From an uncultured Verrucomicrobiae bacterium (lineage in GTDB: Bacteria > Verrucomicrobiota > Verrucomicrobiia > Chthoniobacterales > JAATET01), in the NCBI GenBank assembly GCA_963719495.1, contig CAVRCI010000013.1, positions 320,001-384,000 of the forward strand: a stretch of DNA of 64,000 nt. The letters are read 5' to 3'. Made by a program: the position numbers and the translations under genes. A model generated the notes under the pieces. That model was not told where the DNA came from. It made no database searches and was given only the letters and a program-made list of their open reading frames with translations. Of this stretch, positions 39,964 through 64,000 are shown piece after piece; the first letter of the stretch is position 1; each line of letters opens with the position of its first letter.

Positions 39964-40118
39964 CGGGAAGAGGGAGGCGGTGAGGAGTTCGGTCTTAGCG
40001 TTTTCGGTTTTAAGCGGGATAGGTGGTTTGTGCTTTTTAAATTTTCGTGTTTTTTTTCAGCACTTTTGGGGTGGGGCGTGGAGGGTGAGGGGTTTGACGC
40101 TTCGCGTTTGGGGAGGAG

Positions 40119-40166
40119 GCTCCGAGCTGGAAGCTCGAAGCGGCGGGCTGGAAGCCCGCGGTCCCC
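40119..40166 (-). repeat. Copy of the alaS-associated double-hairpin REP
   Basis: Reverse complement reads GGGGACCGCGGGCTTCCAGCCCGCCGCTTCGAGCTTCCAGCTCGGAGC. Confidence 0.85.
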
Positions 40167-57925: not shown

Positions 57926-58004
57926 GGGGACCGCGACCTTCCAGGTCGCCGCTCCGGGCTTCCAGCCCGGAGCCACGTCCAAAACCGGCGAAGCCGCACT
58001 TCCC
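57926..58004 (+). repeat. Double-hairpin REP unit abutting the alaS stop codon
   Basis: GGGGACCGCGACCTTCCAGGTCGCCGCTCCGGGCTTCCAGCCCGGAGC...CCGGCGAAGCCGCACTTCCC. Confidence 0.9.
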
Positions 58005-61000
58005 TCACCCCGCCAAAACCCGCTCCGCCTCCGCCAGCGCCTCGCGCAATTTCGTCACATCCTTCCCGCCCCCACGCGCCGCTTCCGGTCGTCCGCCCCC
58101 CTTGCCTCCGACGACCGGCGCGATCGCTTTGATCACATCGCCAGCCCGAACCACCCCGACGAACTCCAGCGACACCGTCGCCACCAAGGCCACAACCCCA
58201 TCCGCCGCCCCCGCAAGCACCAACGCCCCCTCGAACCGCCCCTTCAGCGAGTCCGCCATCGCCTGCAACTCATCACCCGAAGCCCCCTCGATCTCCTCGA
58301 TGATCGCGGGCACGAGCAACCCCGCGCTTCGCACCCTGTCGAGCAGCGCACCCGCCGCCGCGGCCGCCTGTTTCTGGCGCAGCGCCGTCACCTGTTTTTC
58401 GAGATCCTTCTGTCGAGCCAACGTCGCCTCCAGCTTGCGCTCCAGCTCCACGACCGGCGCGCCCACCATCGCGGCCAGCGCCCCGAGCTGCCCGGCATCC
58501 GCCGCCCCGCGATCCAGCGCGACGAAACCCGCCACCGCCTCGATCCGCCGCACGCCCGCCGCGATCGCCGACTCCGCCAGAATCCGGAACGGCCCGATTT
58601 CGCCCGTCGCCCGCACGTGCGTTCCGCCGCACAACTCCATGGAATACCCGTCCAGCTCGCCCGCCGCCCCGCCAATCTGCACGACCCGCACGACGTCGCC
58701 GTATTTATCCCCGAAGAACTGCATCACGTCCGCGCGCCCCGCCACGTCGGCGTGCGGCACCTCGGTCCAACTTACCGGCGCGTTCTCGAGAATCCGTTCG
58801 TTCACCAGCCGCTCGACGTCGCGCACCTGCTGATCGCTCAGCGCCGCGCCGTTGAAATCGAACGTCAGCTTTTCCGCCCCCACGTAGGACCCCTTCTGCG
58901 AAGCCTCGCGGTTCACGACCTCGTGGATCGCCCAGTGCAGCAGGTGCGTGACCGTGTGGTGCCGCGCCACCGCCGCCCGCCGCTCGCAGTCGATCACCAC
59001 CGAGACCCGCGAGCCCGTTTCCGGCGCGTCGTCGCCGTCGATGAAGTGTAAAAACGTCGCGCCCGCCTTGCGCACGTCAGTCACCGACCAACTCGCCGCC
59101 CCGTGCGAGATAAGACCCCAGTCGCCGACCTGCCCGCCCATCTCCGCGTAGCAAACCGTCGCGTCAAGGACCACCGCCGTCCGGTCTTTCACCGCCACGA
59201 CATCCAGCACCTCGGCGTCCATTTCGTCCGTCTCGAACCCTTCGAACCGCGTCACCCCCGACCCGTCGAAACTGGCCAGACTGATCACCTCCTTCTTCTG
59301 AGCCGCCCGAGCCCGGCTGCGCTGCGCCTCCATCAACGTTTCGAAACCCGCCGTATTCACCGAGAGCCCCCGCTCCCGCGCCATCAGCTCCGTCAGATCC
59401 AGCGGGAACCCCTGCTCGTCATAGAGCTTGAACGCAAACTCCCCGGAAATCACCCCGGGAGCGCCAGCACCCCGGGGACCGCGACCTTCCAGGTCGCCGC
59501 TTCGAGCTTCCAGCTCGGAGCCACGTTCCAATCCCGGCGAAGCCGCACTTCCCGCACCCGCAGCCTCCGCCCGCCCCCGAAACCAAATCCACGAATAATC
59601 CTCCTCCGGTCCCACGACGTCCGACCGCCAGGGATTCGAAAGCACGTAGTGAAACTTTTCCTCCACGTCGGCATCCGACCGCATGAGCCGGTCGTGATAT
59701 TCGTTCTCCCAGAGTTGCTCCCCTTCTCGACCCTCCAGCTTGTTGACCTCATTCGCGGTGAACGATTTCAGCGAATGGAAAATCTCCGCCAGTCCAAAGA
59801 AGCTCGGCTCTCCAACGGCATCCCCGCCGTTGACCATAGGCTGAAGCAAAACGTGCACGTGGTCCGGCATCACGCAAGCCGCGTAGAGTTCGTAGCGTCG
59901 GCCATCGAAGTGCCGAAGCGAGTTCATGACGACGTCGCGCGCCGGCTCGGTCAGGATGCGATGGTCCCGTGTCGAAAAAGTCACGTGGTAGATGCCGTGC
60001 GGACGTTCGTAGTGCGGGAGGCGGCGTTTCCAGTAGCGAGCGCCCGCGGCGGGCGATTGGGGGGAAGCTCCGAGCTGGAAGCTCGAAGCAGCGACCTGGA
60101 AGGTCGCGCTCCCCAGCCTTTCGGCTTCGCTTTCGAACATCGCGATCCCGCGATCCAGCGTCCGATTGAACGCCTCCTCCTCCATGTGCAGCACCTCGCG
60201 AATGTGCCCCTGCTGCCGCCGCAACTCCGGAAAGACATCGCCCATCGATCGCACGACCACGTCCGACAATTTGTAGAAAAACGGCTCGTGAAACCCCAGC
60301 TCCCGCCCGTATTTCACCGCCCGCCGCAGGATTCGCCGCAGGACGTAATTTCGGTCCGAGTTCCCCGGCTGAATCCCATCCGCGATGGAAAACGTCAACG
60401 TCCGGATGTGATCCGCGATCACCCGAAACGCCACGTCACCCCGCTCCTGGTCCGATTCACCCGCCGACCCCGCCATCGGCAGAGTCGACCCGTATTTCCG
60501 CCCGCTCATCGTCTCCAGCTCGTCGAAGATCGGCCGGAAGATATCCGTTTCGTAATTCGAGATCTTCGCGTTCGCAAAATCCGTGAACCCCCGTGTCCCC
60601 TGAATGATCGAAGTCACCCGCTCGAACCCCATCCCCGTATCCACGTGCTGCGCCGGCAGCGGCACGAACGACCCGTCCGGATTCGCGTTGAACTGAATGA
60701 ACACGAGATTCCAAATCTCGATGCACCGCGCGTCCCCCGCGTTCACCAGCGACCCCCGCGTATCCCCGGCGGGCGTCAAATCGACGTGCAGCTCCGAGCA
60801 AGGCCCGCACGGCCCCGTCTCGCCCATCATCCAGAAATTATCCGCCTTGTTCCCGTTGACGATTTGCACCGCCGGATCGAGTCCCACCGCGCGAAAAAGC
60901 TCCGCCCAAAGATCCCACGCCTCCTGGTCGAACTCGCTCGGATCCCCTTCCCCCGGGGCGTAAACCGTCGCGTAAAGCCGCTCCGCCGGGAATCCCCACC

Positions 61001-61376
61001 GCTCCACCACCAGCTCCCAAGCCCACCGGATCGCCTCCGCTTTGAAGTAATCGCCGAAGCTCCAATTTCCCAGCATCTCGAAGAACGTCTGGTGGTAGGT
61101 ATCCAGCCCAACATCCTCGAGGTCGTTGTGTTTCCCGCCCGCGCGAATGCACTTCTGCGTGTCCGTCGCCCGCGTGTCGCGCCCCGGCACGCCCCCCGCC
61201 CAGCGGCTCACGTCCGGTGCCTTCTGACCCAGGAAGATCGGGACAAATTGGTTCATCCCCGCGTTCGTGAAGAGCAGGTTCGGCGAGTCCGGCATCAGGC
61301 TGGACGACGGCACCACCGAGTGCCCCTTCGAAGCGAAAAAATCCAAATACGACTGCCGAATCTCAGAACTGGTCAT
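58005..61376 (-). CDS. alaS: Alanine--tRNA ligase with in-frame transposase insertion (1123 aa)
   Basis: LLFTNAGMNQF, FFEMLGNWSFGDYFK, DTGMGFER, editing motifs HTVTH and ELCGGTH, and C-terminal GGKGGG. Start reset to ATG 61376. Confidence 0.96.
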   Translation of the reverse strand: MTSSEIRQSYLDFFASKGHSVVPSSSLMPDSPNLLFTNAGMNQFVPIFLGQKAPDVSRWAGGVPGRDTRATDTQKCIRAGGKHNDLEDVGLDTYHQTFFEMLGNWSFGDYFKAEAIRWAWELVVERWGFPAERLYATVYAPGEGDPSEFDQEAWDLWAELFRAVGLDPAVQIVNGNKADNFWMMGETGPCGPCSELHVDLTPAGDTRGSLVNAGDARCIEIWNLVFIQFNANPDGSFVPLPAQHVDTGMGFERVTSIIQGTRGFTDFANAKISNYETDIFRPIFDELETMSGRKYGSTLPMAGSAGESDQERGDVAFRVIADHIRTLTFSIADGIQPGNSDRNYVLRRILRRAVKYGRELGFHEPFFYKLSDVVVRSMGDVFPELRRQQGHIREVLHMEEEAFNRTLDRGIAMFESEAERLGSATFQVAASSFQLGASPQSPAAGARYWKRRLPHYERPHGIYHVTFSTRDHRILTEPARDVVMNSLRHFDGRRYELYAACVMPDHVHVLLQPMVNGGDAVGEPSFFGLAEIFHSLKSFTANEVNKLEGREGEQLWENEYHDRLMRSDADVEEKFHYVLSNPWRSDVVGPEEDYSWIWFRGRAEAAGAGSAASPGLERGSELEARSGDLEGRGPRGAGAPGVISGEFAFKLYDEQGFPLDLTELMARERGLSVNTAGFETLMEAQRSRARAAQKKEVISLASFDGSGVTRFEGFETDEMDAEVLDVVAVKDRTAVVLDATVCYAEMGGQVGDWGLISHGAASWSVTDVRKAGATFLHFIDGDDAPETGSRVSVVIDCERRAAVARHHTVTHLLHWAIHEVVNREASQKGSYVGAEKLTFDFNGAALSDQQVRDVERLVNERILENAPVSWTEVPHADVAGRADVMQFFGDKYGDVVRVVQIGGAAGELDGYSMELCGGTHVRATGEIGPFRILAESAIAAGVRRIEAVAGFVALDRGAADAGQLGALAAMVGAPVVELERKLEATLARQKDLEKQVTALRQKQAAAAAGALLDRVRSAGLLVPAIIEEIEGASGDELQAMADSLKGRFEGALVLAGAADGVVALVATVSLEFVGVVRAGDVIKAIAPVVGGKGGGRPEAARGGGKDVTKLREALAEAERVLAG
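59474..60114 (-). mobile_element. REP-flanked RAYT-like Y1 transposase domain inside alaS
   Basis: RRLPH, YHVTF, VMPDHVH (HUH), KSFTA, LWENEYHDRLMR and YVLSNP motifs. 48-bp inverted repeats at 59474-59521 and 60067-60114 (46/48 identical). Confidence 0.92.
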
Positions 61377-61415
61377 CACGTAAAACACCGTCCCCAAAAC
61401 CAAAAAGAAAAGCAA

Positions 61416-61490
61416 GGGGACCGCGACCTTCCAGGTCGCCGCTTCGAGCTTCCAGCTCGAAGCCCCCCAAACCCGGCGAAGCCGCACTCC
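61416..61490 (+). repeat. Double-hairpin REP unit upstream of alaS
   Basis: Near-identical to 59474-59550. Confidence 0.9.
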
Positions 61491-63968: not shown

Positions 63969-64000
63969 GGGGACCGCGAGCTTCCAGCTCGCCGCTTCGG
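63969..64000 (+). repeat. Partial copy of the alaS-associated REP (window edge)
   Basis: GGGGACCGCGAGCTTCCAGCTCGCCGCTTCGG. Confidence 0.8.

Follow-up and report, generated by a model that had tools for sequence, protein, structure and literature searches.

Repetitive extragenic palindromes (REPs) and the REP-associated tyrosine transposases (RAYTs, or TnpAREP) form the elements called REPtrons, that is, tnpAREP/RAYT genes flanked by their REPs (as set out in passages of Quentin 2018, PMC6006769, among other sources). In the passages of Corneloup 2021 (PMC8266576) that define the term, tnpAREP appears as a stand-alone gene whose REPs are extragenic, RAYTs are widely seen as domesticated single-copy genes, and there is 'no evidence of tnpAREP mobility'. 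REPs can also lie within genes; the relevant passages of Di Nocera 2013 (PMC3733652) describe REPs alone, of 20-82 residues, that are translated within tRNA synthetases and repair genes, with the verrucomicrobium Opitutus terrae having the highest count, and these passages do not mention a RAYT within a host frame. Here we analyze a window of 64,000 nucleotides (the whole stretch of DNA under study; contig CAVRCI010000013.1 of assembly GCA_963719495.1, positions 320,001 to 384,000) from an uncultured Verrucomicrobiae bacterium of the order Chthoniobacterales, in which a RAYT with its flanking REPs lies in frame inside alaS, the gene of alanyl-tRNA synthetase (AlaRS). Such a RAYT inside a host frame is a variant of REPtrons for which we found no description in the literature searched: a full-text search, with subscription journals and supplements outside its range, gave no title, abstract or passage on a RAYT inside a host reading frame. 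Below, G000 denotes the genome of the window itself, C13 the contig that holds the window, and G001-G004 related congener genomes.

A REP-RAYT-REP unit in the alaS frame

The alaS gene is a single uninterrupted open frame on the minus strand (window 58005..61487). Its likely start is a conserved Met at 61376 (MTSSEIRQ...), which gives a coding sequence of 1123 codons plus stop (58005..61376, minus strand), as an earlier note made from the letters alone had read it. The whole protein scores 796.6 bits against TIGR00344 (equivalog cut-off 457.05), and the insert splits this match at profile positions 383 and 379. The part of the protein before the insert (residues 1-421; 60114..61376, minus strand) comprises the aminoacylation domain and part of the tRNA-recognition domain and matches positions 1-378 of the Pfam tRNA-synt_2c profile; the part after it (residues 642-1123 and the stop; 58005..59453, minus strand) holds the rest of tRNA-synt_2c, the editing domain and C-Ala/DHHA1. 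A second intact alaS, which the earlier note had named as a possible objection, was not found in G000 (4.54 Mb in 16 contigs, 98.6% complete, 63% G+C), where one locus only was detected. The host is thus identified as AlaRS by a full-length match above the equivalog cut-off in the sole genomic copy.

The insert consists of residues 422-641 (window 60113..59454). It follows directly on the host sequence TLDRGIAMFESEAERL (residues 406-421), and the host resumes directly after it with VISGEFAFKLYD (residues 642-653). All motifs lie where the earlier note had placed them: RRLPH at residues 451-455, the HUH motif MPDHVH at residues 503-508 (59853..59870, minus strand; His506 and His508) and the catalytic tyrosine motif YVLSNP at residues 577-582 (59631..59648, minus strand; Tyr577). 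With MPDHVH and Tyr577, the insert has both the HUH motif and the catalytic tyrosine that characterize a RAYT. Direct reading also bore out the absence of an upstream start and of intein-type ends. From the left arm to RRLPH the frame contains no ATG, GTG or TTG, and no stop occurs within the insert before the alaS stop. The insert starts with Gly422, not with Cys, Ser or Thr, and ends in ...APGV641 before Ile642, without His-Asn. No Hint or intein family was matched in Pfam, at E <= 0.01 for the whole protein or at E <= 1 for the insert alone.

The insert is bounded by inverted arms of 60 nt each (59474-59533 and 60055-60114), 88% complementary according to a repeat finder, and the 48-nt cores of the two arms match at 46/48 positions, in agreement with the inverted repeats of the earlier note. 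The left REP arm (60067..60114, minus strand) has a GGGGAGC head followed by two hairpins on the coding strand and is translated as GSATFQVAASSFQLG (residues 422-436). The right REP arm (59474..59522, plus strand), with its head at the 5' end on the plus strand, opposite to alaS, is translated as GSELEARSGDLEGRGP (residues 619-634). The unit thus has the inverted flanking REP hairpins of a REPtron, with cognate REPs elsewhere in the genome, and departs from a REPtron gene that stands alone, with a start and stop codon of its own and REPs outside it, in that both REPs of the insert are translated.

The RAYT (HUH/Y1) core spans AlaRS residues 454-596 (59589..60017, minus strand). On the insert, the NCBIfam model REP_Tyr_transpos (NF047646) scores 78.1 bits (E 6e-22) over profile positions 3-145 of 146, and Pfam Y1_Tnp, a check proposed in the earlier note, scores 24.9 bits on the insert alone against a cut-off of 23. 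The NCBIfam model transpos_IS200 (NF033573) gave 17.8 bits against a cut-off of 55, which does not place the insert among the IS200-type TnpA proteins. A single-sequence search of PDB with the insert returned marginal ISDra2 matches only (E >= 0.05), and a profile of 16 in-frame copies had 4ER8, the E. coli TnpAREP, as its sole match (E 2e-5). An AlphaFold model of residues 441-611 (mean pLDDT 84.1, pTM 0.80) led to the same structure, with 4er8_A at rank 1 of the Foldseek search of PDB (E 9.6e-7, TM 0.62/0.64); ranks 2-30 were almost all IS200/IS605-type Y1 transposases, and the first other fold appeared at rank 31. Both model and profile therefore indicate a Y1 HUH fold closest to TnpAREP. 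Ton-Hoang 2012 is said to be among the sources on REPtrons and on the E. coli TnpAREP of PDB 4ER8. Together, these results confirm that the alaS insert is a REP-RAYT-REP unit with an HUH/Tyr transposase core, and uphold the view that the sole alaS carries in its frame an intact RAYT bounded by REPs.

A full-length AlphaFold model, made from an alignment of 45 sequences (mean pLDDT 73.0, pTM 0.44), supports a RAYT domain on two floppy tethers, which is the only picture that it bears out. In this model, the long helix 389-421 stops exactly at the insertion point, the predicted tethers (residues 423-456 and 603-639) have pLDDT < 50, 10-residue blocks across 461-600 average 68-94, and the host chain picks up again with helices at 645-655.

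In-frame RAYTs in other genes and genomes

A search of G000 with the alaS insert identified a 46%-identical domain within a 911-residue RecG frame on contig C14 (locus L002, G000:C14:100089-103643; RecG frame L002 478..3213, minus strand). This recG copy is also an in-frame REP-RAYT-REP unit. It scores 84.3 with NF047646, above the cut-off of 80, and has inverted 50-nt arms (84% complementary) and a dispersed REP family of its own, with 27 copies in G000. A RAYT-like domain of a more distant subclass, with the motifs DLPHWQQ, MPNHVH and YVRKN, lies in frame in LeuRS (locus L003, G000:C10:1141-4425; LeuRS frame L003 109..3285, minus strand), and no clear inverted arms were found around it. The ValRS of G024 and G038 contains a domain similar to the one in LeuRS. 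The family model detected 12 RAYT-like loci in G000, 3 in long host frames and 9 in frames of 183-356 residues; a free-standing 211-residue RAYT gene lies on C4.

To describe the spread of such units, matches at E <= 1e-10 were collected from a sample of 61 genomes of the order, G000 included. They occurred in 26/61 genomes, the stronger ones in open frames of 770-1450 residues. Pfam assigned 21 of the host frames as follows: RecG in 9 cases, AlaRS in 5, ValRS in 2, ThrRS and LeuRS in 1 each, and no host domain found in 3. In a protein collection from which 8000 candidates were scored, at least 779 long proteins matched at the same threshold. The best 120 of these were nearly all AlaRS, with MetH, RecG and CarB in addition, and many carry the automatic JGI name 'alanyl-tRNA synthetase/REP element-mobilizing transposase RayT'. 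Two RAYT domains, at different sites, were present in 11 of the best 120 proteins (P0002-P0012; AlaRS and MetH, metagenomic).

A search of species-representative genomes gave at least 549 stretches that code for a relative; where records are named, most belong to Verrucomicrobiota (Chthoniobacterales, Udaeobacter and others). We kept 80 of these loci for a count of host frames; 75 have the LPH motif in an open frame, and all 75 were scanned. Identified host frames surround 74 of them (AlaRS 50, RecG 14, CarB 3, ThrRS 3, MetH 2, PFL 2), and in one no host domain was found. The AlaRS insertions fall at two or more sites, near G000 residues 411-445 and 295-305, and the fragment P0157 has a third, in the editing domain. 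In an even sample of the phylum, 6/401 genomes had matches at E <= 1e-30, a lower bound since at most 8 candidates were scored per genome; all seven matches lie in frames of 730-1164 residues. Proteins of 121-385 residues gave 133 matches. Ten of them were read, of which six show recognisable host sequence at one end and three are ambiguous, with one left unclassed. Hundreds of independent assemblies show the in-frame architecture, some of them on contigs > 700 kb. The in-frame RAYT is a widespread habit and not a single event.

The site in AlaRS was aligned for 14/17 genomes of the family (G005, G009 and G016 have no usable stretch there). The empty alleles for which the earlier note had suggested looking exist: the three congeners closest to G000 (93-94% identical in the N-terminal part) have neither insert nor REP remnant, read ...EAERLG(A/E)(S/K/I)GEISG... 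and are 648 bp shorter. G002 and G014 have diverged copies of the insert at the same AlaRS position, the G002 copy being 75% identical to that of G000 in the core and placed at the same codon, so that 2/5 AlaRS alleles of the genus contain the insert. In a host tree calculated without the insert columns, (G002,(G000,(G004,(G003,G001)))), whose forks have a support of 98-100, the insert would be either ancestral to the genus with one clean loss, or gained twice. The residues that flank the insert vary among elements. AlaRS of G011, G010, G015 and G012 (loci L047, L049, L051 and L053) carry at this loop inserts of about 60-85 residues that are unrelated and show no RAYT similarity, so the loop is permissive.

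Host and insert identities are only weakly correlated in 82 full-length AlaRS fusions (Spearman 0.38). In the pairs P0058/P0111 and P0091/P0112, most host windows are 80-100% identical and insert windows fall to 45-78%; a conserved host with a diverged insert, given dN/dS near 0.06, suggests that inserts have been replaced. Some pairs have a lower dS in the core than in the host. We did not retain this as evidence for transfer, since constraint could equally explain it. On the tree built from 91 cores, 16 changes of host label are needed (minimum 6, shuffled mean 39, 0/200 shuffles as low), and the insert of the window belongs to a 30-member clade of AlaRS inserts only (support 96). According to this tree, insert lineages mostly keep to one host site and switch occasionally. 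That seven or more host/site classes exist requires repeated movement of the whole unit, for which the sequence comparisons provide indirect evidence.

Arms, cognate REPs and selection

Nearly all elements have inverted arms, irrespective of the host gene. When 65 left arms were aligned from the head, GGG(G/T)AGC and two subsequent hairpins were common to them, and the stems varied between elements. The tag just 5' of the first hairpin is of the G(T/G)AG type; this tetranucleotide is GGAG in the window, and GTAG is found at the same column in about 1/5 of the related arms. The reading phase of the arm relative to the transposase is the same in 64/69 elements. No direct repeat that could represent a target-site motif or duplication was seen outside the heads, the ends being uncertain; the bases there mostly prolong the inverted repeat (e.g. 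TCTG...CAGA, AAAG...CTTT).

Covariation in the hairpins was counted over a 7-bp and a 10-bp helix (17 pairs) in the 65 left arms, a total of 1054 cells. Pairing is possible in 96.7% of these cells, and compensatory changes, affecting both sides, occur in 15/17 pairs. Cells changed on both sides number 261, versus 72.9 +/- 12.2 in 500 shuffles, none of which reached 261. Slid controls, with the partner column shifted by 1-3, had 25-44 double-changed cells, in a comparison that favours the structure because it was derived from the same sequences. By this pattern of covariation, the translated arms are conserved as putatively functional DNA hairpin structures.

The cells without Watson-Crick pairing add strand information. 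Left arms on the coding strand contain 23 G-T and 6 A-C cells, and right arms on the opposite strand, with the head at the 5' end, contain 34 G-T and 7 A-C cells (59 arms; 3 dropped for register). The strand favoured by wobble pairs thus differs between the two arms, which suggests strand-specific single-stranded DNA hairpins and not hairpins of one mRNA, in which the right arm would carry A-C mismatches. This disfavours removal of the insert at the RNA level by way of the long repeats, which the earlier note had put forward. A strand-wide mutation bias was also considered as the cause of the pattern and rejected, because it would shift both arms in the same direction, but the arms are opposite. 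The asymmetry points to REPs that are used as single-stranded DNA by their transposase, as it is what such use would predict.

Dispersed REPs were counted with a 24-nt pattern of head and first hairpin, allowing <= 2 mismatches, and the reversed pattern, used as control, gave 0 throughout; the pattern for the recG type was that of the G000 recG REP. G000, which has an alaS and a recG insert, contains 36 alaS-type REPs (16 without mismatch) and 27 recG-type REPs. The counts are 7 and 0 in G002, which has an alaS insert and in which no recG insert was found, versus 0 and 6 in G003, which has no alaS insert and a recG insert of the same type as G000. G001 and G004 lack an alaS insert and have a recG insert of another lineage; both contain 3 alaS-type REPs, 1 of which is an arm of their own recG insert, and 4 (G001) or 3 (G004) recG-type REPs. 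The reciprocal pattern of G002 versus G003 is what a working, specific transposase domain would predict. The other 11 RAYT loci of G000 are all more than 10 kb away from any alaS-type REP. The 16 mismatch-free copies in G000 suggest recent copying.

Two extragenic REPs of the alaS type frame the gene in the window, one at 61416..61464 (plus strand, 98% identical to the right arm, 40 nt upstream of the alaS start) and one at 57926..57974 (plus strand, 94% identical, 31 nt downstream of the alaS stop). Further copies lie at 40118..40166 (C13:360118-360166, minus strand, 92% over 49 nt) and at 63969..64000, continuing past the window end (C13:383969-384009, plus strand). The alaS open frame extends 37 codons upstream of the conserved start (61377-61487), because the upstream REP copy at 61416-61464 is also stop-free in the alaS frame, and gene callers may annotate a 1160-residue AlaRS, as in the stored protein P0001. 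The same upstream REP (61409-61468) and the internal left arm (60062-60121) are 87% complementary to each other in inverted orientation; the whole N-terminal half of alaS (1287 nt) lies between them, and the pair may be a substrate for rearrangement.

Elsewhere in G000, REPs at or inside stop-to-stop frames were noted at C8:95753-95834, C5:133223-133246, C5:135515-135560, C15:90147-90172 and C15:91186-91226; the hosts of these frames are a SpoIIE-type response regulator, FtsH, COX2 and COX1, and REP pairs flank ftsH and the COX2 gene much like alaS. Pfam applied to six REP-spanning frames of G000 gave the SpoIIE-type regulator, FtsH, COX2, COX1, an ABC ATPase and one frame without assignment; as these are stop-to-stop frames, intragenic and upstream copies look alike. 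A screen of the G000 REPs for translation by open frame and GC3 was ambiguous in this GC-rich genome. Some REP subfamilies of G000 differ from the master copy by paired changes that preserve the stem (GCGAGC...GCTCGC in 13 copies, GCACGC...GCGTGC in about 17), which hints either at REP lineages that diversify with the hairpin kept or at further cognate transposases.

Conservation of the transposase was assessed in 131 in-frame domain copies from the best 120 proteins. The first HUH histidine is kept in 131/131, the second in 130/131, and both the catalytic tyrosine and the Asn of the YVLSNP motif in 131/131. For 79 locus pairs with cores >= 78% identical, dN/dS was calculated according to Nei-Gojobori, and where dS was measurable the values for the core were mostly 0.02-0.25, not the neutral ones that would have spoken against function according to the earlier note. 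Examples are L110/L112 (dN/dS 0.064, dS 0.56), L088/L099 (0.083, dS 0.41), L078/L082 (0.078, dS 0.66) and the recG inserts of G000/G003 (0.177, dS 0.155); G001/G004 gave 0.51 at a dS of 0.058, with very few changes. For the alaS core of G000 versus G002, dN is 0.178 and dS 1.15 (near saturation). By these ratios, the catalytic core is under purifying selection.

Interpretation and relation to known systems

With moderate confidence, we read the alaS insert as an in-frame REPtron, that is, an internal and probably active domain on disordered tethers that is unspliced and sheltered by an essential gene. One chain of 1123 residues would be made, in which a folded RAYT sits on two disordered tethers of ~35 residues, the translated REP arms plus adjoining linker sequence, and in which AlaRS stays functional; nothing would be spliced out at the RNA or protein level. 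The RAYT domain would be catalytically active on single-stranded DNA hairpins, with each REP in its own head-5' orientation, and this activity would keep up and spread the cognate REP family and occasionally move or cleanly excise the whole unit. Transcription and translation would be provided by the host gene, which would also shield the element, only a clean in-frame deletion being survivable, and the niche of an intein would be reached without splicing. The patchy distribution and the clean empty alleles suggest a selfish or commensal resident and not a host necessity. The idea of a safe harbour and expression vehicle, intein-like without splicing, with which the earlier note had explained the locus, fits the spread in housekeeping genes, the clean empty alleles and the purifying selection. 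A bifunctional AlaRS-nuclease, likewise suggested in the earlier note, is a plausible possibility. More tentatively, such REPtrons could form a distinct class of mobile elements: reading-frame cassettes in permissive loops of essential proteins that would be expressed only with the host, would be active, and would move as whole units between alleles and host genes, either through excision and insertion of single strands by the transposase or through replacement of alleles.

Several observations weigh against an active and mobile in-frame REPtron. Pfam Y1_Tnp reaches 20.4 bits inside the whole AlaRS, under the cut-off of 23, and the alaS insert misses the NF047646 cut-off of 80 by 1.9 bits. The full-length model is weak (pTM 0.44), with the catalytic N-terminal region 37-109 also below a pLDDT of 50, and says little on domain packing. 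A search of public sequencing runs for the locus found no RNA run, and we infer single-chain translation, AlaRS activity and RAYT activity from the genome data. The AlaRS copy of G058, which is outside the set of 131, has HVD in place of HVH and is decayed. P0129, P0142 and P0144 are short relatives on long contigs that may be free-standing, and the lineage is then perhaps not strictly in-frame. Only 47/69 measured element sizes are multiples of three, the element borders being approximate, and the correlation of REPs with RAYTs rests on five related, non-independent genomes. With respect to mobility, for which the evidence is indirect, the well-supported branches of the insert tree require no more than two origins for the main AlaRS site. 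The inserts of G000 and G002 fit plain vertical descent, as judged from identities of 89% in the N-terminal host part, 75% in the core and 77% in the C-terminal host part and from a synonymous divergence of the core not above that of the host. GC3 is 0.74 in the core and 0.82-0.86 in the host. The pair P0027/P0031, with 100% insert identity, was considered as a case of horizontal transfer and dismissed, as the host is ~95% identical adjoining the insert and divergent in the C-terminal domain.

Strong purifying selection on the catalytic residues would also be expected if a host had recruited the RAYT, for example for coupling REP or single-stranded DNA processing to translation or repair, and had kept it for its benefit. 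Many hosts are nucleic-acid enzymes (AlaRS, ThrRS, ValRS, LeuRS, RecG), the inserts show site fidelity (16 label changes versus 39 in shuffles), and RAYTs in general are regarded as domesticated single-copy genes in the passages of Corneloup 2021 (PMC8266576). We nevertheless consider domestication unlikely, as the elements are patchy (6/401 genomes of the phylum sample, 26/61 of the order, 2/5 AlaRS alleles of the genus), the closest relatives thrive with empty alleles, the hosts CarB, MetH and PFL have no DNA link, and the model predicts long disordered tethers instead of a conserved interface. The opposite possibility is a tolerated relic, an old insertion that cannot be deleted safely, with an inactive transposase and dispersed REPs left from past activity. 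Its appeal lies in the comparison of G000 with G002, which fits long vertical residence, in the GC3 of the core, which is near that of the host, in the one relative with a broken HUH motif, and in the passages of Corneloup 2021 (PMC8266576) according to which the literature holds no evidence of tnpAREP mobility. Decay would be expected of a relic, yet 130-131 of 131 copies retain the catalytic residues, with dN/dS far below 1; hairpins are maintained by compensatory change, and the 16 mismatch-free REP copies suggest recent copying. We regard this explanation as decidedly doubtful.

That the insert is removed or separated after transcription, by RNA excision, a new kind of protein splicing, or proteolysis of the tethers to give a free RAYT and a two-piece AlaRS, is highly improbable in our view. 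The 48-nt arms are able to pair in RNA, and the two tethers, disordered according to the prediction, would be accessible to proteases. The wobble pairs favour opposite strands (23 versus 6, 34 versus 7), intein-type termini and matches to a Hint or intein family are lacking, and the flanking residues are unconserved among elements. As to an artefact of assembly or binning that joined a transposase to alaS, the junction reads proposed as a check in the earlier note exist for one side: a 221-nt contig of a public sediment metagenome bridges the left junction (59959-60179) with 1 mismatch, in a run that may be the source sample, and the five short contigs that this run gave leave the right junction and most of the insert uncovered. 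The assembly is moreover a draft of 16 contigs. Against these points, the locus sits in a 775-kb contig with a perfectly open frame, the architecture is repeated in hundreds of independent assemblies, including contigs > 700 kb, and a congener has a diverged copy (75% core identity) at the same codon position, which reduces the probability of an artefact to a negligible one.

An in-frame REPtron would have consequences beyond this locus. Described RAYTs are immobile and free-standing, and in-frame units at several sites and in several hosts bear on how RAYTs and REPs spread. The units also offer a natural test, as among the few congeners compared the abundance of a REP family tracks the cognate in-frame transposase. 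To be protected by an essential frame, with no splicing chemistry, would be a new survival strategy for a DNA transposon, and the cassette class, if real, would parallel inteins without splicing and provide evidence, for the first time, that the RAYT gene itself is mobile. The inserts mark surface loops of AlaRS, RecG, ThrRS, CarB, MetH and PFL that tolerate ~220 additional residues. For annotation, the 'over-long' synthetases are real and not fusion errors.

Among the known systems, REPtrons share with the alaS unit the HUH + Tyr Y1 core with 4ER8 as best solved match, the inverted REP hairpins on both sides and the dispersed cognate REPs, and the GGAG of the window may be a counterpart of the GTAG that directly precedes REP hairpins. 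Unlike them, the alaS unit has no start or stop, its REPs are translated, it lies inside an essential gene, and sister units occupy at least seven host/site classes. Intragenic REPs and Rickettsia palindromic elements, as far as the passages on them describe these, resemble the unit as short palindromes translated in frame in functional genes, and differ in that the alaS insert includes the transposase itself. IS200/IS605 elements (IS608, ISDra2) have the Y1 HUH fold and sub-terminal hairpins that act as single-stranded DNA, and their excision is seamless, which would fit the clean empty alleles of alaS. Their hairpins are unlike each other and lie on one strand, whereas the ends of the alaS unit are inverted repeats with opposite strand preferences, and the unit has neither tnpB nor a reading frame of its own. 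In contrast to inteins, the alaS insert has no Hint domain, no N-terminal Cys, Ser or Thr and no C-terminal His-Asn; it lies in a variable surface loop and not in a conserved active-site motif, and is presumably kept in the mature protein. Like inteins, the unit places a selfish nuclease-type domain in frame within a conserved, essential and long protein, and in-frame RAYTs share with them fixed sites, sporadic spread, clean empty alleles and the occurrence of more than one insert per host protein.

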